From an uncultured Synergistia bacterium (lineage in GTDB: Bacteria > Synergistota > Synergistia > CAYRKT01), in the NCBI GenBank assembly GCA_964425005.1, contig CAYRKT010000001.1, positions 77,980 through 141,979 on the forward strand: a stretch of 64,000 nucleotides of DNA, written 5' to 3'. Below are positions 3,190 through 60,587 of this stretch, in pieces. Below the pieces are notes generated by a model, which saw nothing but the letters and a program-made list of their open reading frames with translations, did no database searches and was not told where the DNA came from. Positions within the stretch are counted from its first letter, which is position 1; the number at the start of each line of letters is the position of its first letter. The translations under genes and the position numbers were made by a program.

Positions 3190-4461
3190 CTACCTCCTCA
3201 GGTTCGCTGCAACGAACAGGACCAGAGCTGTGAGGAAGATGGGAGATCCCGCAGAACCGATCGAGCAACCTCCGCCTTCCTCCCAGCCAAGAGAAGGATC
3301 GCTGGAGGGTAACGGTTGCAGGAAGGCGAACTCCTCACAGGCGGCAGCATAGTCCCATATGACCCACTCGCCGAGATCCTCCCCCCCGAGGGTGAGCAGG
3401 CCCGAAAGACCTCCCCAGAGGTCGGTCCTTCCCGCGACACTGCCGTCCAGGAGCGCCTCCCCCCAGGCCCTGATCAGGCGGTCGGAGTCCATCCCCCTCT
3501 TCTTCAGGGCCTCGACGAGGTACGCCACGTCGCAAAGACTGTGGGTGTCGTACTTCGGCATTCTCCTCGTCGCTTCTTCGATGGCCTCGATGAGCCCATC
3601 CCGATCCCTCTGGGCCATCTCCCTGAGGACCTGGAGGACCGCCTTCATCCTGGCAGGCCTGAATATGGTCTGGATCATGGCGAGGGCCGCACTTTCTCCA
3701 CCCTCTTTCCTCTTCCACTCCACCATCCACCTGGGGACTTCTTCGCCGCTAGCTGCATTTTTCCAGTAAAGGGAGCCCCAGTAGGTGCTCCTTGTCGGAT
3801 CTCCGCTCACGATCCACCCCCAGGCCTGGACCCAGGGGGCTATCCCCTCCATGGCCGAGAGGGTTTCGGGAACGGCCGAGAGGCAGGAGCTAAGCACGAG
3901 GAAGTCCACTCCCCCTCTTTCTCTTATTGCCTCCGCGATGGCCTTCCACCGCTTCGGCGTCCCGTCCTCGAACCCGGGCAGGGGAAGTCCCACCCCTCGC
4001 CAGCCACCGCCATGGCTCTCGAAAACGAGAAAGACCTTCTTCCCGGGGGCCATCCTTCGAACCCAATCCAGGGCGTCGACGAAGACCCCGGGGTCGAGAG
4101 GGTCCATCTGCCCAGCGGGGGAAAGCCTTTCCACCTCCTCCCACCTTCCAACCCCGTAGGGCCTGCCCGATGGGCCGCGGGCGGACGACTCCAGAACCCC
4201 CCTCGACCTGACCACAGGCGCGTCTTCGGAGTATGGGAAGTACTGAAGGTAGACATCTATGCCGTTCGCCAGAGCCATCCCGATGTGGTTGTACTCTATC
4301 CCCTCTCTCCTTCCCTTTGAAATGAGATATTCCGGAACAACTTCAAACCCATCCCCTATGAAGTAGTGCAGGATGACCCACTCCTCCTGCGCGAGCGCCA
4401 CCCCCGCGGCACACGAGAGGGCCACCAGCGCAAGGAGCACGGCTTTCAACCCCTTCTTCAT
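3190..4461 (-). CDS. Secreted clan CD cysteine peptidase, clostripain (C11)-like
   Basis: N-terminal signal peptide MKKGLKAVLLALVALSCAAGVALA. Candidate catalytic His in FLVFESHGGGW and catalytic Cys about 45 aa downstream in FLVLSSCLSAVPE, the His-Gly ... Cys arrangement of C11/caspase-fold peptidases. 423 aa. Confidence 0.55.
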   Translation of the reverse strand: MKKGLKAVLLALVALSCAAGVALAQEEWVILHYFIGDGFEVVPEYLISKGRREGIEYNHIGMALANGIDVYLQYFPYSEDAPVVRSRGVLESSARGPSGRPYGVGRWEEVERLSPAGQMDPLDPGVFVDALDWVRRMAPGKKVFLVFESHGGGWRGVGLPLPGFEDGTPKRWKAIAEAIRERGGVDFLVLSSCLSAVPETLSAMEGIAPWVQAWGWIVSGDPTRSTYWGSLYWKNAASGEEVPRWMVEWKRKEGGESAALAMIQTIFRPARMKAVLQVLREMAQRDRDGLIEAIEEATRRMPKYDTHSLCDVAYLVEALKKRGMDSDRLIRAWGEALLDGSVAGRTDLWGGLSGLLTLGGEDLGEWVIWDYAAACEEFAFLQPLPSSDPSLGWEEGGGCSIGSAGSPIFLTALVLFVAANLRR

Positions 4462-4499: not shown

Positions 4500-4916
4500 T
4501 CAGAAGCCCGGCACCCACCTGTAGATCGAATAAAGGCCGGATTCCTGATCCCTCCTGAGGGTGAACACCACGACCACCTTGCCCAGCCTGATCTCTGCCA
4601 GATGGACCAGCTGGTATCCCCGGGTGAACACCCTCTTCTTCGCCTCCGGGTTCTCCAGGAAATCGTTCACGTCCTCCAGGACCAGGAGGATCTCGCGGGC
4701 CCGGGGGAGCCTGTGGCCGGAGAAGTGAATACACACAGAATCCCCCCACTCCCACCCCTTCTTCCTGGTCCTCTCCATGAGCTCCTTCAGCTCAGCCCCA
4801 TGATCTCCTCCGGGGCGAACCCCGAACACGGGGATGATGGGTCCCGTCTCCTCCTGCACTTCCTCCCTCAGCTCCTCCTTCACCTTCCCCACTCCTGTCT
4901 TCTCATCCACTTCCAT
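4500..4916 (-). CDS. UmuD-like S24 peptidase-domain protein (LexA C-terminal domain homologue without a DNA-binding domain)
   Basis: PIIPVFGVRPGGDHGAEL matches the LexA/UmuD linker (VPLLGRVAAGSPILAEE). GDSVCIHFSGHRL..ILLVLED matches GDSM..I.DGDLL. KRVFTRGYQLVHL matches the LexA VTVKRLKKQGNKVELL segment holding the catalytic Lys. Start at MEVDEK (ATG 4914-4916) preceded by AAAGGAGGTGA. About 138 aa. Confidence 0.6.
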   Translation of the reverse strand: MEVDEKTGVGKVKEELREEVQEETGPIIPVFGVRPGGDHGAELKELMERTRKKGWEWGDSVCIHFSGHRLPRAREILLVLEDVNDFLENPEAKKRVFTRGYQLVHLAEIRLGKVVVVFTLRRDQESGLYSIYRWVPGF

Positions 4917-4986
4917 CACCTCCTTTCCTCCCTTCCCCTGCCTTTTCGTGCGGCGGTGGGTCACCCCCTTTCGGTTAGAAGAAGCC

Positions 4987-5376
4987 TCAAACTCCCCTCC
5001 TGCTCCCTTTGGAGAGCAGGTCCAGGTCTTCTAGGACTCCTATCTCCAGATCCTCCTCCTTGGCCCTGTCGCTCCCGGTGAGGAGCCCCTTACCCTCCAG
5101 CCCCTTCAGCTTCAGCGACCTCGCTCGGATCGACCGCTTCGCGTTCGCCCGTCTTGTCGCCGGAGGCCTCCTCACTGTCGCGGCAGTCCCCGTAGTCGCA
5201 GCTGAAGCAACCCCTTCAGGAAGAGGCCTAACGGGAGCTAACTGCACCCAGGATGGCATGGGGAGGTAGCTCTGGAGGACTGAGCTCTCCTGAGCCAGCT
5301 TCTTCCCTAACGCCCGCTGGGTCTTCGCCAAGATAAGCTCGAAGAGAATCCTTTCCGCACACCCGATCTCCCCCAT
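4987..5376 (-). CDS. Hypothetical protein with a possible helix-turn-helix N-terminus and an Ala/Thr/Arg-rich low-complexity middle
   Basis: ORF MGEIGCAERILFELILAKTQRALGKKLAQESSVLQ.. lies downstream of a candidate promoter. No confident family match from sequence alone. Sits 70 nt upstream of the UmuD-like gene on the same strand. Confidence 0.35.
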   Translation of the reverse strand: MGEIGCAERILFELILAKTQRALGKKLAQESSVLQSYLPMPSWVQLAPVRPLPEGVASAATTGTAATVRRPPATRRANAKRSIRARSLKLKGLEGKGLLTGSDRAKEEDLEIGVLEDLDLLSKGSRRGV

Positions 5377-5407
5377 CCCCTTCGGGGAGAGCCTGCCTGT
5401 GCTATAT

Positions 5408-5435
5408 ATTATCTTCCCCATCCATTTTAATACAA
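5408..5435 (-). promoter_or_regulatory. Candidate sigma-70 promoter: -35 TTGTAT, 16-nt spacer, -10 GATAAT, inside an AT-rich island
   Basis: Minus-strand sequence reads TTGTATtaaaatggatggggaaGATAATatatag. The next ATG (5376) lies about 25 nt downstream of the predicted transcription start. Confidence 0.35.
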
Positions 5436-5787
5436 TTGCTTTCAAGCTGTAATTAGCATATCTGGGCCCATCCCTTTCATCCCTGGGCTTGTGCTCAGCC
5501 GGTACCATCCCCCTGGCGTCTCAGGGCGAGGGGGTTGAGAAAACTTTGCCCCCACCTGGCGCAGGCGGGGGCGGGGGGAAATACATCCGGGTCTCGATCT
5601 TCGAGGCTTTGCGCAGAAGGATCAGGTTATACTCCTCGACGAGGTAAACCCTCCTCCATCCGCATGCCCTTCAGGGCCATCGAATACATGTCATCAGACA
5701 CAAAGACCAGCGGCGAAAGGCTCTCCGACTGGAGTCAAGGTCTGGCGCCGTGCGGCGCGCGAGCCTCTATGAAATTTCGGCTGGAAC

Positions 5788-10607: not shown

Positions 10608-10637
10608 ATTATAGCAAGGATGCCCCATTGCGGTCAA
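10608..10637 (-). promoter_or_regulatory. Sigma-70 promoter for the rplU-prp-rpmA operon: -35 TTGACC, 18-nt spacer, -10 TATAAT
   Basis: Minus-strand sequence reads TTGACCgcaatggggcatccttgcTATAATccaaaaatg, about 45 nt upstream of the rplU ATG. Confidence 0.45.
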
Positions 10638-25976: not shown

Positions 25977-25985
25977 ATTATAGCA
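25977..25985 (-). promoter_or_regulatory. Extended -10 promoter element (TGcTATAAT) upstream of secA
   Basis: Minus strand reads gctgTGcTATAATgggtagg, about 45 nt upstream of the secA start. Confidence 0.35.
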
Positions 25986-27575: not shown

Positions 27576-27872
27576 ATGAGAGGCAAGCTAGCTCTCACCC
27601 TGTTCTCGCTGCTGATCTGCGCCTGTCTCAGCCCTATGCCCTCGGGGGCAAGCGAGTGGAAGGAGGTGTTCCGGAGGGACCACGCGGTGTACCTCGTGGA
27701 GCTACCCCCCATCAGCAACGACTGCAGCTCGACTCAAGTCAGGGTGAGGATAAAGATCGAGGGGACGGGCTTCGAAGAGGAGCTGATATACCAGTTCAGC
27801 GAGGACGGCAAGCTCTACAGGAACCTGGACAGCGTCGTCAGGGCCTCCGACGGAGGCCTGGTGGAGACCTGA
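27576..27872 (+). CDS. Small exported hypothetical protein (signal peptide)
   Basis: MRGKLALTLFSLLICACLSPMPSGASEW.. hydrophobic signal sequence. Starts 9 nt after the purH stop with a GAGGA RBS; 98 aa. Confidence 0.5.
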   Translation: MRGKLALTLFSLLICACLSPMPSGASEWKEVFRRDHAVYLVELPPISNDCSSTQVRVRIKIEGTGFEEELIYQFSEDGKLYRNLDSVVRASDGGLVET

Positions 27873-51698: not shown

Positions 51699-52141
51699 TA
51701 GAGCTTCTCAGCGCAACTGGAACACAGGCCCACCAGGTTGACCCGTACGTCCTCGACCCTCAAGCCCATCCCCTCAGCGGCGGAGACCACATGGGAGAAG
51801 TCGAGCTCAGAAGGCACGTCAAAAACCCCCCCGCAACCCCTGCACCTGAGGTGGGCGTGCGGGCTGACGTCGCCCTCCGCCCTGACCTCCCCGCTCTCCG
51901 CGTAGATCAGCTTGACTATCCCCTTCTCGAAGAGCAATTTCAAGGTATTATACACCGTGGTCTTAGATATGGTGGAGATGTCCTGCCCCAGGACTGAATA
52001 TATCTCGTCCACGGTGGGATGGGACTTGCTCTGCAGGACGTATTCTAGAATCCTCACCCTGTGGTAGGACGGGGTAACTCCCGCCTCGAGCAAAAGCTCC
52101 CTGGCCTTGGACCTCCAATCCACCGCGCAAAGCGATCTCAC
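51698..52141 (-). CDS. Fur-family transcriptional regulator (PerR-like)
   Basis: Winged-helix N-terminus (..RVRILEYVLQSKSHPTVDEIY..), HAHLRCRGCGGV and C-terminal CSSC metal sites; 147 aa. Confidence 0.8.
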   Translation of the reverse strand: MRSLCAVDWRSKARELLLEAGVTPSYHRVRILEYVLQSKSHPTVDEIYSVLGQDISTISKTTVYNTLKLLFEKGIVKLIYAESGEVRAEGDVSPHAHLRCRGCGGVFDVPSELDFSHVVSAAEGMGLRVEDVRVNLVGLCSSCAEKL

Positions 52142-52888
52142 CTAGCTCACCCCCTTTCCAGAGACGAGCGTCAAATCGGGCAACCTGACGTATCGGGGCT
52201 CGGCCCCGGTAAGCAGGGTTCTGCCCAGGTCGTCGAAGGGAGCCATGGCGACCGCTATGGCCCTGGTGGAGGGAAACCACCCGCGCGAACCCAGAGGCCT
52301 CAGCGAGGGGATCACCTCAGAGAGGTCCGGGATGCCCTCTCCCACCACCTCCACAGGGGCCTCCGCCGACATCAGGGCCTCCATCAGCTCCGTCGTACCG
52401 CCGCAGCGGGGCCCGAGGAACCTCCCACGATCGGGCGAGAGCAAGCCGTAGTAGTAGAGGCCCGGCTTGGCCGGCAAGGCGGCCAGGACCGCGACCCCTC
52501 TGGCTCCCGCCCAGGGATAGGCCATCGCCTCCAGAGAACCCATCCCCAAGAGCTCGACCCCCAGCGCGAGCCCAAGTCCCCTAGCGTAGGCAAGCCCTAT
52601 CTTTATCCCCGTGAAGGACCCTGGACCCACCGTCACCGACACGGCCGAGAGGTCGAGGAGGGACCGAGAGGACCTGGAGAGCACCTCTTCCACCAAGAGG
52701 GGCAACAGCTCCGCGTGCCTTCGCGGAGCCCAGAGGGATTCAGCCGCCAGGAGCCTCCCACCCCCAGCGAGGGCCACCGAAGCCCAGTCCGAACAGGCAT
52801 CTATCCCCAAGACGAGATCATGGGCCAAAGCGCAACGCCTCCACCACCGGCGAGGTCGACGCCAGCGACCCCCACCTCCTGGCGGCAT
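52142..52888 (-). CDS. tsaB: tRNA threonylcarbamoyladenosine biosynthesis protein TsaB (start probably internal; the maximal ORF overlaps tsaE by 71 nt)
   Basis: LVLGIDACSDWASVALAGG..LDLSAVSVTVGPGSFTGIKIG.. is typical of YeaZ/TsaB. Confidence 0.75.
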   Translation of the reverse strand: MPPGGGGRWRRPRRWWRRCALAHDLVLGIDACSDWASVALAGGGRLLAAESLWAPRRHAELLPLLVEEVLSRSSRSLLDLSAVSVTVGPGSFTGIKIGLAYARGLGLALGVELLGMGSLEAMAYPWAGARGVAVLAALPAKPGLYYYGLLSPDRGRFLGPRCGGTTELMEALMSAEAPVEVVGEGIPDLSEVIPSLRPLGSRGWFPSTRAIAVAMAPFDDLGRTLLTGAEPRYVRLPDLTLVSGKGVS

Positions 52889-53339
52889 CCTCGCCCAGGG
52901 GCTTCACCTCCAGAAATCGCTCCTCCGGGGCCGAACCGAAGCTGAATCGAAGGGCAAACCCCCGAGAAGGGGCGTAGGACATCCTCTCAGCCCACTCCAC
53001 CAGGACCACCCAGCCCTCCGCCTCGTACTCCTCGAACGCTAGCCCCAGCTCGCCCCCCTCCACCCTGAACAGGTCCACGTGGAGGACCCTCAACCCCCCC
53101 GACGGGGGCGCGTACTCGAGGGCCACGAGGAAGGAGGGACTTCTCACCTCCCCCCCACAACCCAACCTCTCGCAGAAGCCCCTCGCGAACTCGGTCTTCC
53201 CCACGCCCATCTCGCCGAAGAGGAGGAAGAAATCGCCCCCCCTAGCGACCCTGGCCATCTCGCCAGCGAAGAGCCGCATCGATTCGACGCTCAGGACCCT
53301 AAGGAGCACCAGGGGCACACCCCTTAGCCCACAGGACAA
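52818..53339 (-). CDS. tsaE: tRNA threonylcarbamoyladenosine biosynthesis ATPase TsaE
   Basis: P-loop LLFGEMGVGKTEFARG, SPSFLVALEY, HVDLFRV, VLVEW motifs of YjeE/TsaE. Confidence 0.8.
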   Translation of the reverse strand: MSCGLRGVPLVLLRVLSVESMRLFAGEMARVARGGDFFLLFGEMGVGKTEFARGFCERLGCGGEVRSPSFLVALEYAPPSGGLRVLHVDLFRVEGGELGLAFEEYEAEGWVVLVEWAERMSYAPSRGFALRFSFGSAPEERFLEVKPLGEDAARRWGSLASTSPVVEALRFGP

Positions 53340-53345
53340 GAAATT

Positions 53346-53443
53346 TGGCGGAGGCGTGTGGGAATCGAACCCACCGGGAGCCGCCGAGGCAACCCCCCAC
53401 TGGATTTGAAGTCCAGGACACCCACCAGGACATATCCGCCTCC
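53346..53443 (-). tRNA. selC: tRNA-Sec (selenocysteine tRNA), anticodon TCA, about 98 nt with long variable arm, CCA encoded
   Basis: Anticodon arm CTGGA-CTTCAAA-TCCAG is identical to E. coli selC; long extra arm TGGGGGGTTGCCTCGGCGGCTCCC; T arm GTGGG-TTCGATT-CCCAC; discriminator G + CCA; acceptor GGAGGCG(G)/(A)CGCCTCC with a G:A at the 8th pair. Confidence 0.75.
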
Positions 53444-53455
53444 GCTCTTGGAGAG

Positions 53456-53464
53456 ATTATACCA
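53456..53464 (-). promoter_or_regulatory. Extended -10 promoter (TGgTATAAT) directly upstream of tRNA-Sec
   Basis: Minus strand reads ttagtttttTGgTATAATctctccaagag|tRNA. The predicted transcription start lies about 6 nt before the mature 5' end. Sits in the 50-nt gap after the fprA stop. Confidence 0.4.
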
Positions 53465-53493
53465 AAAACTAAGAGGTACCTTTCGGGATGCCC

Positions 53494-54702
53494 TCAGTAC
53501 TGACAGGCCTTGAGAAGCTGGGCCATCCTGCGCCCCATCTCCCTGCACCTGTCCAGGTCCTCGGCGGACGGAGAGGACTTGAACTCGAAGGACGGCTCCA
53601 CCAGCTCCCACGATCCGCTCTTCGTCAGCACCTCCTTCATCTGGGAGACGATCCCGGGACTCCAGGTGTAGCAACCTACCAAGCCCAGAAGCCTGCCCTC
53701 CATCTTCTTGTTGGCCAGGTGCCCCAGGAGCTCGCGAACCGGAGGGAAGATCTCGGCGTTGTAGGTGCAGGAGGCCAGCACCAGGGCCTTGAAGCGCCAT
53801 ATGTCCTTCACCACGAAGGAGGAGTGAACCCTGGAGGCGTCGTGGACCACTATCCTCTCTATCCCCTCCTCCGCCAGGGTCCTCGCCACGGCCTCGGCGG
53901 CCTTTCGGGTGTTGCCGTACATGGACCCGTAGACCACCACGGCGCCGCACTCGGTCCTGTGCTCGCTCCACCTCAGGTACCTTTCGACTATGGAGTTGGG
54001 CCTCCGGCGATGGATGGGGCCGTGGGAGGGAGCCACCACCCTTATCCTCAAAGAGGATAGCTTCTCTATCGCCGCCTTGACCGGCTTGCTGTAGCGACCG
54101 ACGATGTTCGAGAAGTACCTCAGGATCTCGTCCTCGTAGTACTCCATGTCGACCTCGTCGTCGAATATACCTCCGTCGAGACAACCGAAACCGCCGAAGG
54201 CGTCGCAGGAGAAGAGGACGCCCTCCCCCTCGTGGTAGGTGGCCATGGTCTCAGGCCAATGGACCATGGGTATGGTGTGGAAGGAGAGCGCGTGCCCACC
54301 GCCCAGGTCGAGCCTATCCCCGTCCTTCACCACCAGCACGTCTCGCTCCCCCAGTCCATAGAAGCTCTTTAGCATCTCGAGGGTCTTGGAGTTGCCCACG
54401 AACTTGAGCCCCGGATACAGAGCCTTCAGCATCCTGGCCGAACCAGAGTGATCGGGCTCCATGTGGTTTACCACCACGTAGCTCAACGGCCTGCCCCCTA
54501 GGACGGACCTCACCTTGTCCATCAGCTCGCCGAAGAAGGAGGACTTGACCGTGTCCACCAGCAACGCCTCGTCCCCCACCACCAGGTAGGAGTTGTAGGA
54601 GACACCCCTAGGAAGAGGCCAGTAGGCCTCGAAGAGATCGGTCTCGTGGTCGTTTACGCCCACCCAGTAGATGCCCTTGGCCACGGCCACCGCCTCGTGC
54701 AA
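53494..54702 (-). CDS. Flavodiiron protein (FprA / rubredoxin:oxygen oxidoreductase type)
   Basis: MBL-like di-iron domain with VVNHMEPDHSGS (H-x-E-x-D-H), HTIP, DAFGG, then a C-terminal flavodoxin-like domain; 402 aa. Confidence 0.85.
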   Translation of the reverse strand: MHEAVAVAKGIYWVGVNDHETDLFEAYWPLPRGVSYNSYLVVGDEALLVDTVKSSFFGELMDKVRSVLGGRPLSYVVVNHMEPDHSGSARMLKALYPGLKFVGNSKTLEMLKSFYGLGERDVLVVKDGDRLDLGGGHALSFHTIPMVHWPETMATYHEGEGVLFSCDAFGGFGCLDGGIFDDEVDMEYYEDEILRYFSNIVGRYSKPVKAAIEKLSSLRIRVVAPSHGPIHRRRPNSIVERYLRWSEHRTECGAVVVYGSMYGNTRKAAEAVARTLAEEGIERIVVHDASRVHSSFVVKDIWRFKALVLASCTYNAEIFPPVRELLGHLANKKMEGRLLGLVGCYTWSPGIVSQMKEVLTKSGSWELVEPSFEFKSSPSAEDLDRCREMGRRMAQLLKACQY

Positions 54703-54911
54703 CTAAAATCACCTCCACCGCTCGATTCGCAGGACCCAGGCGCTTAATGGGGCCGTCGATCCTGCTATACTTTATTCCGAGGTCAACAACTTCGGGGAGG
54801 AGAGGATGTCAGGCCATGAGGGACAGCTGCGGTCAAAGGTGCGTCCAAAGCTATTATAGCATCGCCCTCTGGAACGCATACGGCCCTCTGAGGACCTCGA
54901 TAGAACGAAGC

Positions 54912-55502
54912 ATGAAACGTCTGCTCCAACCGCTGGTCTGCCTCCTCGTGGGGGTGGGCGTGTCGCCCAACCTCTTGAGCCTCTTGGGGGTGGCGGGCAA
55001 CGCGCTGGGAGGGATCCTCTTCGCCCTGGACGAGTACAGGCTTGCCGGGTTAACGACCCTCCTGGCTGGCACCATGGACGTCCTGGACGGAGAGGTGGCC
55101 AGGTCCGGCAGGTCCGAGAGCAAGTTCGGCGCGCTGCTGGACTCCACCCTGGACAGGTACTCGGAGATGCTGGTCTTCTGCGGCTTGGCCTCCAGCTCAT
55201 ATTGGGATGGATCTTCCCTCGGCTTCGCCGTCCTGTTGCTCTCCCTCGCAGGAGCTACCGGCTCGATGATGGTGAGCTACATCAGGGCCAGGGCCGAGTC
55301 CCTGGGGATGGAGTGCAAGACTGGGCTCTTTCAGAGACCCGAGAGGGTGATCATCCTGGGACTGGGCAGCTTGATCGTCGGCAAGGGACCTCTGATGATC
55401 CTGCCCCTCGCCCTCATAGCCGTTGGGACCAACTTCACCGCCCTCGAGAGGTTGACCCACTGCATGAGGGTCTCCCGGCGAGGGGATACCTCCGCCGGAT
55501 GA
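54912..55502 (+). CDS. CDP-alcohol phosphatidyltransferase family protein (start at internal ATG; the ORF extends to 54747)
   Basis: DVLDGEVARSGRSESKFGALLDSTLDRYSE = D-G-x2-A-R-x8-G-x3-D-x3-D motif; downstream SYIRARAESLG and transmembrane segments. Confidence 0.75.
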   Translation: MKRLLQPLVCLLVGVGVSPNLLSLLGVAGNALGGILFALDEYRLAGLTTLLAGTMDVLDGEVARSGRSESKFGALLDSTLDRYSEMLVFCGLASSSYWDGSSLGFAVLLLSLAGATGSMMVSYIRARAESLGMECKTGLFQRPERVIILGLGSLIVGKGPLMILPLALIAVGTNFTALERLTHCMRVSRRGDTSAG

Positions 55503-56402
55503 GGGGTCGAAGGGCTCGACGTGGACCACCACCGTGGACCTGTGCCCCAGGTATGAGCCCAAGGTCGACTCGACCCGAGAGGCTATCTCGTGGGCCTTGA
55601 CCACGTCCAGGGAGGGATCCACCAGCACGTGCAGGTCCACGCTGGCGTACGGCCCAAGCCTCCTGATCCTCACCTTGTGGAAGTCCATGACCCCGGGCAC
55701 CTCGCCCACCAGGGATTTGACCCTCTCCACCTCCTCGCCGGAGGGGATGCCGTCCATGAGCTCGTGGACGCTGCTCAGCAGGAGCGGAAGGGCCGACCAC
55801 CCTATGAACAGCCCCACCACTGCGGCCGCGAGGCCGTCCAGCCCCACCAGCGCGCCGCCAAGGCGGGATAGCCCAGTGCCGGCGACCACCACCACGGAGG
55901 AGAGGGCGTCCGACCTGTGCTCCAGCCCCTTCGCCTTGAGTAGGTCGTTGCGCAAGGCCTCGGACCTCAGGATGGTGTACCTGGCGAGCAACTCCTTGGA
56001 GACCACGGACGAGAGGGCGAGCCAGAAGGCAAGCGGCTCCGGCGGCTCTAGGAGACGGGATCCCAAAGAAAACCCCAAGAAGTCCCGAAGGCCCAAGAAG
56101 ACGAACAGAAAGGCCACCCCCACGAGCGATGAGCCGCAGAGCAAAGTGGCCAGCGTCTCGGCTCTTCCGTGCCCGTAGGGGTGGCGCTCGTCGGCCGGCC
56201 TGGAGGAGAGCTTAACGCTCCAGATGGCCACCAGATCGGTGATGAGGTCCGCCGAGGAGTGGAAGGCGTCGCTCACCAGCGAGATGCTTCCAGCCCAGAT
56301 TCCCCCCGCTAGCTTAGCGGCCACGAGCAGGGAGTTGACCCAAAGGCCCAGCCTGAGGACCCTAAGCTCGTCCCCCGCCCCCACGCCCGGCGCAGCGCCC
56401 AA
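55197..56402 (-). CDS. Cation diffusion facilitator (CDF) family metal efflux transporter with a long His/Asp-rich C-terminal tail
   Basis: LVSDAFHSSADLITDLVAI..ERHPYGHGRAETLATLL (CDF transmembrane signature) and cytoplasmic C-terminal domain ending about ..VVVHVEP. The ORF continues about 100 codons further (GGGIPSPGDPH..DDHPLG..VAHHHRAG), antisense to the CDP-alcohol phosphatidyltransferase gene. Confidence 0.75.
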   Translation of the reverse strand: MGAAPGVGAGDELRVLRLGLWVNSLLVAAKLAGGIWAGSISLVSDAFHSSADLITDLVAIWSVKLSSRPADERHPYGHGRAETLATLLCGSSLVGVAFLFVFLGLRDFLGFSLGSRLLEPPEPLAFWLALSSVVSKELLARYTILRSEALRNDLLKAKGLEHRSDALSSVVVVAGTGLSRLGGALVGLDGLAAAVVGLFIGWSALPLLLSSVHELMDGIPSGEEVERVKSLVGEVPGVMDFHKVRIRRLGPYASVDLHVLVDPSLDVVKAHEIASRVESTLGSYLGHRSTVVVHVEPFDPSSGGGIPSPGDPHAVGQPLEGGEVGPNGYEGEGQDHQRSLADDQAAQSQDDHPLGSLKEPSLALHPQGLGPGPDVAHHHRAGSSCEGEQQDGEAEGRSIPI

Positions 56403-58718: not shown

Positions 58719-60587
58719 TCAATCCCTCAGGACCTCGATGGACCTGACCGCGAGGGACCTCCCACCAGGGCGGCGAAGCGCGAAGAAACCAGCCATCCAG
58801 CCTCTCACGCCCTCGTGATCCGAGGATCTGAGGCAGACCTCCAGATCCTCCCCCTCCTCGCTGACCCCAATGAGCTCCGCGAAGGACGGCAAGGACGACG
58901 TGAAGCCCTCCCCTCCTCCCCTAAGGGCGAGCCGAAGCCTATACAGGTTAACGAAAGGAGGATAGCCAAAAATCCGCCTCCCTTCAAGCTCCACGCTCCA
59001 CATGTTTTGAGGTCCTCCTTTTAAGGCGTTGACAAACCAGGAACGGGGGTTCCTGGTCTGCACGTAGACCTCCCTCTCCTCGCCGGGCCTGAGCCCCCTG
59101 TAGCCCGACTGCAGGATGGCCCCGTAGAGCCTGGGGACCACGTCGTAGTCCGGCCTGGATAGCTCGAGCTCCAGGTCGAGCCAGGCGCAAAGGGGGACCC
59201 TCGCGGACTCGAGCACGTCGAGGGACCCACGACTGCCCAGGATCAAGCCGCCCCCTCTCGCCCACCCCAACACCTCGGCGAGCGCCCTCCTGGAGAGATC
59301 CCCCCTCAGCACCGCCGTCTTCCCCTCGCCGAACAACCCACCGGCCACCTCGGCGTAGGCCTCAAGCCCTGGGGAGAGATAGCGCCTAAAGGGGGACCCA
59401 CACCTGGGGCACCTCTCGCTCGGATCGCCGGAGACGCCGCACCACCTGCACCTCTGTCCGCCGGACCTCGACAGGGAAAGGGGCCGCGAGCACCTGGGAC
59501 AGCTCATGGTCGTCCCGCAATCCTCACAGACCGCCAAGGCGGCGTAACCCTTCCTGTCCAGCAACCAGAGGACGATTCCCCCCGAGTCCAGCACCTTCCT
59601 CGTAGCGCTCACGAGGGCTGGGGAGATCCTGGTTCCCCCCACGGGGCCAAGATCCCTGGCCCTCCTCAGGTCCACCACGTGCAGGCTCACCCCGTCGCGC
59701 GACCTGAAGGGCACCCTCTCCCTCCAGAGGAGCTCGCCCGAGGCGCCAGACCTCAGGGCCCTGTAGGAACGGCTCGACGGCATGTCGCCTCCGAGGACCA
59801 GCTTGAAGCCCTCGACCTTCGACCTCATGTAGGCCACAGTCCTGGCGTTTATCGTCCCGTGCCTCTGGGATATCAGATACGGGGAGGCCTCTTGCTCCAC
59901 CACCATCAGCCCCAAGCGCGGCGAGGGCACGAAGACGGAGGAGCGCGCCCCCACCACCACCTTCCCTCCCCGGCTCAGCCTGAGCTCCAGCCAAAGGGAG
60001 AGCGCCCTCCTGGAGGAAAAACCCCTCCAGAGGTGAAGCTCAAGGCCCTTCAAGCGCTCTCTGGCGAAGGAGAAAAATCTCTCCGCCGAGGAGACCTCGG
60101 GGAAGACGAGCACCGCGTCCTCGCCCCTCTCGGCCGCACCTTCAGCCTCCGCGCAGTAGAAATCCCACCTCTCCCACTCCTTGAAGGAGTAGAAGAGAAA
60201 AAGCTTTCCCTCCCCACCTTCCGACCTGGCCGGCAGGGGCTCCCGGATCGGCTCCAGCCTGGGAGGACACATCTGGGCCAACACCAGACCTCTGGAGGTG
60301 AGGAAGAGCTTGCCTATCTCGTCCGACAGCGCCCAAAGCCCGTCGGTGAGGAAGGGATAGAGGTCCACGGGACACAGATCGTCCCGCAGCGCGCTGAGGT
60401 CCGGCAACCCCCGCGGGTGCTCGCCGTCCAGGGGGCGACAGCTCACCACCCATCCCCTTCTCCTCGACCTCCCAAGCGGCAGGTCCACCCTCACCCCCGC
60501 CGCCAGGGGCGCGCGGGAGAGATAAAAAAGGTTGTCCCACCAAGGGGCGGGACAACAGGCCTCGACCAGGTAGAGTTCCTCCGACAT
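58719..60587 (-). CDS. priA: Primosomal protein N' (PriA) homologue with degenerate helicase motifs (probable pseudohelicase)
   Basis: PriA-like N-terminal 3'-DNA-binding region, VVVGARSSVFVP (cf. IVIGTRSALFTP) and Cys-rich zinc region CEDCGTTMSCPRCSRPLSL..CRWCG are retained. Walker A is SEGGEGKL (vs GVTGSGKT), DEEH box is VEQEA, motif III is GGDMP (vs GSATP), motif VI is QSGYRGLR (vs QVAGRAGR). Confidence 0.75.
   Translation of the reverse strand: MSEELYLVEACCPAPWWDNLFYLSRAPLAAGVRVDLPLGRSRRRGWVVSCRPLDGEHPRGLPDLSALRDDLCPVDLYPFLTDGLWALSDEIGKLFLTSRGLVLAQMCPPRLEPIREPLPARSEGGEGKLFLFYSFKEWERWDFYCAEAEGAAERGEDAVLVFPEVSSAERFFSFARERLKGLELHLWRGFSSRRALSLWLELRLSRGGKVVVGARSSVFVPSPRLGLMVVEQEASPYLISQRHGTINARTVAYMRSKVEGFKLVLGGDMPSSRSYRALRSGASGELLWRERVPFRSRDGVSLHVVDLRRARDLGPVGGTRISPALVSATRKVLDSGGIVLWLLDRKGYAALAVCEDCGTTMSCPRCSRPLSLSRSGGQRCRWCGVSGDPSERCPRCGSPFRRYLSPGLEAYAEVAGGLFGEGKTAVLRGDLSRRALAEVLGWARGGGLILGSRGSLDVLESARVPLCAWLDLELELSRPDYDVVPRLYGAILQSGYRGLRPGEEREVYVQTRNPRSWFVNALKGGPQNMWSVELEGRRIFGYPPFVNLYRLRLALRGGGEGFTSSLPSFAELIGVSEEGEDLEVCLRSSDHEGVRGWMAGFFALRRPGGRSLAVRSIEVLRD

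Follow-up and report, generated by a model that had tools for sequence, protein, structure and literature searches.

The minus strand of positions 53346 to 53443 carries a normal, intact bacterial selC, the gene for the selenocysteine tRNA (tRNA-Sec), and as a gene it is routine. We consider it very likely that this is the functional selC, with anticodon UCA, of an uncultured anaerobe of about 62% G+C that probably belongs to the Synergistota. Throughout this text, "the window" refers to the entire stretch of 64,000 nucleotides that was analysed. The features discussed below are listed in Table 1.

Table 1. Features of the selC locus and related sites, with positions counted in the window
Feature	Position	Strand	Basis or remark
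selC, 98-nt tRNA-Sec with encoded 3' GCCA (discriminator G73 + CCA)	53346..53443	-	ARAGORN, Rfam RF01852
selC sequence GGAGGCGGAUAUGUCCUGGUGGGUGUCCUGGACUUCAAAUCCAGUGGGGGGUUGCCUCGGCGGCUCCCGGUGGGUUCGAUUCCCACACGCCUCCGCCA	53346-53443	-	minus strand
Anticodon TCA (UCA), reads UGA	53407..53409	-	ARAGORN; anticodon at tRNA position 35
Anticodon arm CTGGACTTCAAATCCAG, 17 nt	53400-53416	-	holds TCA
Acceptor strands GGAGGCGG and ACGCCUCC, 8 nt each			sequence
T arm GUGGG-UUCGAUU-CCCAC			sequence
AD linker AU, 2 nt			sequence
G8, eighth in the 5' acceptor strand (numbered 7 in bacterial tRNA-Sec), opposite A66	53436	-	sequence
A66, first nt after the 5-bp T stem, opposite G8	53357	-	sequence
Extended -10 element TGGTATAAT	53456-53464	-	last T precedes the mature 5' end by 12 nt
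TGNTATAAT sites	10608-10616, 25977-25985, 53456-53464, 54853-54861	all -	directly 5' of rplU, secA, selC and fprA
fprA, flavodiiron protein with metallo-beta-lactamase/ODP and flavodoxin domains (upstream neighbour)	53494..54702	-	PF00753, PF19583, PF00258
Own promoter motif of fprA, TGCTATAAT	54853-54861	-	motif count
tsaE (downstream neighbour)	52818..53339	-	PF02367 TsaE, 82.3 bits
tsaB, overlaps the end of tsaE	52142..52828	-	TIGR03725 TsaB, 118.5 bits vs cutoff 69.3

Structure and probable promoter of selC

Both ARAGORN (tRNA-SeC, anticodon tca) and Rfam find the gene exactly where a preliminary description of this DNA had placed a 98-nt tRNA-Sec on the minus strand. The Rfam match to RF01852 (53350..53443, minus strand) covers the full model from position 1 to 91 with 77.9 bits at E 2.6e-14 (the gathering score is 47), and the generic tRNA model scored lower at this locus and was suppressed as the weaker clan member. 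A search of positions 52000-56000 with Rfam at E<=1 gave no match besides RF01852 at selC. Since ARAGORN and RF01852 both identify a tRNA-Sec, the gene is neither folded as a non-Sec type II tRNA nor as a pseudogene.

The anticodon arm (CUGGA-CUUCAAA-UCCAG) has UCA in its 7-nt loop and a stem of 5 bp according to ARAGORN, the RF01852 alignment, and a consensus fold with related sequences. The acceptor and T stems have 8+5 geometry (GGAGGCGG / ACGCCTCC plus GTGGG / CCCAC): The 5' strand has 8 nt, the T stem 5 bp, and 8 nt separate the T stem from G73. The D arm (AUGUCC-UGGU-GGGUGU) has a 4-nt D loop (UGGU) on a 6-bp D stem, three pairs of which are G·U or U·G, and the extra arm forms a 9-bp stem with a 4-nt loop in both the MFE and centroid folds. 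The discriminator G73, which is part of the GCCA at 53346-53349, is found in 90 of the 91 unique sequences of the tRNA-Sec class to which the window gene belongs. The 9-bp extra stem and the 8 nt per acceptor strand bear out the long extra arm and extended acceptor geometry described earlier, and the anticodon arm that had been called identical to that of E. coli selC is indeed present in an annotated E. coli tRNA-Sec (L092). Comparison of the window tRNA to E. coli genomes with blastn gave only a 24-nt match in one record, which verifies the anticodon arm and nothing more. As an aside, the tRNA-Sec of E. coli Nissle 1917 (L092:124-202; NZ_CP007799.1, 5254171-5254249) is annotated as only 79 nt. 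At about 95 nt, E. coli selC is longer than this, and NZ_CP007799.1 thus seems to lack most of the extra arm through either a deletion or an assembly error.

The consensus fold was calculated from the window tRNA and its 12 closest environmental relatives (13 sequences) and gave the same cloverleaf with a 7-bp Watson-Crick acceptor stem followed by R8/R66, 5-bp anticodon and T stems, and the extra stem. Compensatory changes are present in 12 of the 29 predicted pairs. Covariation was seen in four of the six pairs of the D stem, of which the two loop-proximal ones are invariant; the D-stem column pair 11:26 reads AU, CG, UG, or GC among the 13 folded sequences. The contig of the window was matched in metagenomes only, and the 98-nt tRNA is identical in five independent metagenome assemblies (ENA, JGI, Logan) that come from different samples. 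In the strain variant L002, six changes in the 77 nt upstream and two in the 45 nt downstream flank a tRNA that has none.

In work on the Aquifex aeolicus molecule, bacterial tRNA-Sec is described with 8 bp in the acceptor stem (1:72...5a:67a, 6:67, 7:66), 5 bp in the T stem, 6 bp in the D stem, 6-9 bp in the extra stem, and 4 nt in the D loop (PMC3711452). The window selC resembles the tRNA-Sec of E. coli and A. aeolicus in its UCA anticodon, 8-nt acceptor strands, 5-bp T stem, 2-nt AD linker, 6-bp D stem, 4-nt D loop, G73, and encoded CCA, and it has the 9-bp extra stem in common with A. aeolicus (PMC3711452). It differs from both in the three G·U/U·G pairs of its D stem, and from E. coli in having G·A in place of C7:G66. 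Its gene lies between fprA and tsaE and not beside selA or selB.

The extended -10 element that had been proposed ahead of selC is present as TGGTATAAT, and motifs of its kind are strongly enriched in the window. The general form TGNTATAAT (TGnTATAAT) has four sites in these 64 kb of 62% G+C sequence versus 0.05 expected, a number that was reached by none of 100 shuffles, and TATAAT alone occurs 13 times versus 1.7 expected, including one site 10 nt before tRNA-Leu(gag). Because each of the four TGNTATAAT sites is directly upstream of a minus-strand gene, an extended -10 without a -35 seems to be the usual strong promoter form of this organism. The strain variants L002 and L006, whose upstream flanks otherwise differ, show no change in TGGTATAAT or in the 12 nt that separate it from the tRNA. 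No hexamer resembling a TTGACA-type -35 was found at a spacing of 16-18 nt, with GAAAGG at 17-nt spacing from the -10 matching only one of six positions, and it is due to this lack of a -35 that a two-hexamer promoter scan of 52800-54000 reported no promoter. A -35 hexamer is not required at extended -10 promoters. The element thus resembles sigma-70-type promoters of the extended -10 form (TGnTATAAT), with a perfect motif and no usable -35, and its spacing of 12 nt to the mature 5' end would be compatible with a leader of 4-6 nt. Judged from these sequence features, an extended -10 promoter of its own is very probable for selC. The scan of 52800-54000 detected terminator-like sites in neither of the two gaps that separate selC from fprA and tsaE, so that read-through from fprA and continuation into tsaE-tsaB would both be possible.

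Purine opposite purine at acceptor position 7:66

The acceptor stem of the window tRNA consists of seven Watson-Crick pairs and a non-Watson-Crick G·A at 7:66, as seen in the RF01852 alignment and in the consensus fold. This G·A at the eighth acceptor pair had been flagged for confirmation and is real: It is the same in all five assemblies and has purine opposite purine like 70 of 89 members of its class, so that we see no warning sign in it. These numbers come from a metagenome scan with a pattern that fixed only the D loop, the anticodon arm, and the T loop. The scan gave 120 loci, from which the removal of duplicates and of sequences cut by contig ends left 89 unique tRNAs with seven clean acceptor pairs, including the one of the window. 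Because the acceptor sequence was not part of the search pattern, position 7:66 was not under selection by the scan. Among these 89 tRNAs, which form one sequence class and are counted regardless of phylogeny, the eighth acceptor position has purine opposite purine in 70 (36 G·G, 18 G·A, 15 A·G, and one A·A), a Watson-Crick or G·U pair in 16, and C·A in three. At 14 of the loci with purine opposite purine, tblastn with the E. coli proteins detected selA, selB, and/or selD adjoining the tRNA, and tRNAs of this kind are therefore part of functional Sec systems.

The EF-Tu antideterminant box of E. coli consists of three pairs (C7:G66, G49:U65, and C50:G64) and thus includes 7:66, according to the part of PMC11231383 that cites Rudinger 1996. 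By analogy, the purine opposition at 7:66 suggests a means of excluding EF-Tu. Going further, it is conceivable but doubtful that purine opposite purine at 7:66 is a selected feature of a large tRNA-Sec class in which this junction would act as an EF-Tu antideterminant and/or SelB determinant that replaces C7:G66. We found no description of the prevalence of purine opposite purine at 7:66 in the searchable literature, though specialists may know of it from published cloverleaf figures.

With only 12 canonical pairs in its acceptor/T helix, the window tRNA is similar to tRNA-Sec with a 12-bp acceptor/T domain, i.e., the 7/5 form with bulges (PMC5330540) and the mycobacterial 7/6 form (PMC13449736), and its 5' sequence GGAGGCG resembles mycobacterial tRNA-Sec (PMC13449736). 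Unlike these 12-bp variants, it has the canonical 8+5 nt without a bulge, a shortened 3' strand, or a sixth T-stem pair, and its junction has purine opposite purine where no nucleotide is missing. A mycobacterial-type 7/6 fold was considered and rejected: In the consensus fold (n=13), the T stem is always preceded by a G, which cannot pair with A66 or G66.

Three environmental tRNA-Sec-like genes are irregular in other ways. One of them (L093, 4147-4244) has a T stem with only three clean pairs, another (L101) a non-G discriminator and no CCA in register, and the third (L120) an acceptor stem with poor pairing. These genes may be pseudogenes or have variant folds.

Gene neighbourhood and Sec machinery

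Pfam and NCBIfam identify the neighbours of selC as fprA and tsaE, in agreement with the preliminary description, and the gap between them, given there as 150 nt, measures 154-184 nt from the fprA stop (53494) to the tsaE start. This start is either the TTG at 53339 or, as in public contigs, the GTG at 53309, i.e., 6-36 nt past the 3' end of the tRNA, and co-transcription of selC and tsaE appears possible from the sequence. Beyond tsaB follow the genes of Fur, an ODP-type metallo-beta-lactamase protein, an MCP-signal protein, and a flavin reductase. The t6A37 modification that TsaE and TsaB make is found on tRNAs for ANN codons, a group to which tRNA-Sec is not known to belong.

FprA matches the flavorubredoxin-type models of NCBIfam below their cutoffs. 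It is the one protein from which the lineage was placed. Its best genome matches are four Synergistaceae/Synergistales MAGs (58-64% identity), so that the organism probably belongs to a Synergistota lineage without a close genome in the collection that was scanned. FprA is also a protein that can be transferred horizontally. None of 80 loci with FprA relatives has a tRNA-Sec within 10 kb, and the tsaE/tsaB neighbourhood is likewise found at none of the 80. A tblastn comparison of FprA, TsaE, TsaB, Fur, ODP, CDF, and ArcC of the window to the environmental selC loci revealed no synteny. Given its absence from both sets of loci, the order fprA-selC-tsaE appears to be specific to this lineage and to have no evident functional meaning, and with no shared neighbourhood in 80 loci the local gene order is of no comparative help.

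Every sizeable ORF of the window was annotated together with about 19 kb of extra flank, which amounts to 83 kb (positions 68,345-151,792 of the 158-kb contig k141_73210). These 83 kb contain no SelA, SelB, or SelD, with the GTPase domain of IF-2 as the sole match to SelB, and no member of known selenoprotein families. There is also no credible gene with an in-frame TGA because each pair of ORFs separated by a TGA in the same frame consists of two ordinary adjacent genes (tig and clpP, nadD-like and lytR, gmk and rpoZ, rpoZ and coaBC, purH and a 98-aa ORF, archease and rtcB, and acylphosphatase and surE). ORF annotation and in-frame TGA scan thus agree with the earlier impression that the window has neither sel genes nor a selenoprotein gene, and for this reason Sec decoding by the organism is something that we infer. 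TGA is the stop codon of 24 of the 49 window genes, which makes UGA a normal stop here, as SECIS-dependent recoding would predict. Sec is used by 13 of 14 sequenced Synergistetes, and the phylum is rich in selenoproteins (PMC5029168). The genes of SelA, SelB, and SelD as well as those of selenoproteins would then presumably lie elsewhere in the genome.

Within 10 kb to the left of the window, contig k141_73210 encodes hypA and a cobW/hypB-like hydrogenase-maturation gene as well as an archease-rtcB RNA-ligase pair (L087:430-1432 and L087:6706-8622). The hyp genes hint at a [NiFe] hydrogenase encoded elsewhere in the genome. In selenium users, a [NiFe] hydrogenase can be a [NiFeSe] enzyme.

A few other genes of the window merit a comment. 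A plus-strand ORF at 54747-55502 matches CDP-alcohol phosphatidyltransferase (PF01066, 52.8 bits) and overlaps positions 55197-55508 of a minus-strand ORF of a CDF transporter (55197-56402). The last ca. 100 codons of this 401-aa CDF ORF are past its Pfam domains and antisense to the PF01066 ORF. In five of six public contigs, gene calls are absent from the gap and from the plus strand opposite the CDF tail, and all that L003 and L006 show in this region is a short call of 97 aa without a family. Either the CDF call is over-extended, or the CDF and PF01066 genes overlap convergently by about 300 bp. A 622-aa protein encoded between coaBC and der (58719-60587, minus strand), which may be a divergent PriA, weakly matches PriA models (TIGR00595, 172 bits versus a cutoff of 230) and has no Pfam helicase domain at E<=0.01. 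Four ORFs have coding-like base composition and no Pfam or NCBIfam match, i.e., a consecutive block of three on the minus strand (3190-4461, 4500-4964, and 4987-5508) and the 98-aa ORF on the plus strand (27576-27872), which follows purH in the same frame past a TGA.

Alternative explanations and significance

If the gene works like its counterparts in E. coli and Aquifex, selC would be transcribed from its own extended -10, possibly with read-through from fprA and perhaps on into tsaE-tsaB, and RNase P would trim a short 5' leader from a transcript in which the CCA end is already encoded. SerRS would charge the tRNA with serine by way of G73 and the long extra arm, and SelA, which would recognise the tRNA by its 6-bp D stem and its 4-nt D loop, would convert serine to selenocysteine with selenophosphate made by SelD. 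SelB-GTP would then bring the tRNA to UGA codons with a SECIS hairpin downstream, while the 13-layer acceptor/T helix would exclude EF-Tu. A working Sec system of this kind is consistent with the intact, conserved tRNA and its promoter as well as with the use of Sec across Synergistetes. Against it we count that selC lies outside any selAB(C) cluster, unlike many environmental relatives, that its promoter has no -35, and that no Sec genes are found in 83 kb.

The same observations could be read as those of an orphan or relic selC, i.e., a tRNA gene that was kept after the loss of selA, selB, and selD in an organism without selenoproteins. The empty 83 kb and the detachment from selA and selB, which adjoin the tRNA in many members of its class, would fit this idea, and the Sec trait is indeed absent from one of the 14 sequenced Synergistetes (PMC5029168). 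However, a relic would hardly be expected to keep all tRNA-Sec identity features intact, nor to be perfectly conserved, together with its promoter element, across strains whose flanks vary. The 83 kb are moreover only a few percent of a genome, and E. coli selC, at about 3.84 Mb, is likewise unlinked from selAB (3.76 Mb) and selD (1.85 Mb). We therefore regard a relic as unlikely. Even less probable is a selC-like tRNA of another identity such as a selC*-type tRNA-Cys, an allo-tRNA, or a UGA suppressor that inserts serine via EF-Tu. Such tRNAs are known from anaerobes (PMC7609411), and the unpaired eighth acceptor position formally leaves 12 Watson-Crick layers, with EF-Tu preferring a 12-bp acceptor/T domain (PMC11231383). 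However, the combination of G73 as the Ser/Sec identity base with UCA, 8-nt acceptor strands, and a 6-bp D stem with 4-nt D loop is that of tRNA-Sec, the score of the Rfam tRNA-Sec model is far above its threshold, and the purine-opposite-purine configuration occurs beside selA, selB, and/or selD in 14 loci. General suppression of UGA is at odds with the window genes, about half of which end in a TGA that serves as an ordinary stop.

An assembly or sequencing error behind the G·A, or a locus that is merely a truncated attachment-site remnant of selC, has a negligible probability in our estimation. The selC gene is an integration hot spot in enterobacteria, and one E. coli record has a shortened tRNA-Sec annotated with 79 nt. 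An error is contradicted by the identity of all 98 nt in five assemblies from different samples and sources, and truncation by an Rfam match that covers the full model. We also rejected the attachment-site remnant on the ground that the window has no duplicate of the tRNA 3' end; a search for a second copy with up to three mismatches found none.

A functional selC thus remains our preferred explanation. For bacterial tRNA-Sec more generally, G·A, G·G, or A·G at the eighth acceptor position is no ground to suspect a pseudogene or an assembly error. Apart from this rule and from what it says about selenium use the gene is routine, with the prevalence of purines at 7:66 as a mildly interesting by-product. 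For the organism itself, selC marks an uncultured lineage as a probable user of selenocysteine, and genes interrupted by UGA (e.g., those of glycine reductase or formate dehydrogenase) should therefore be sought in its genome and not be dismissed as truncated.
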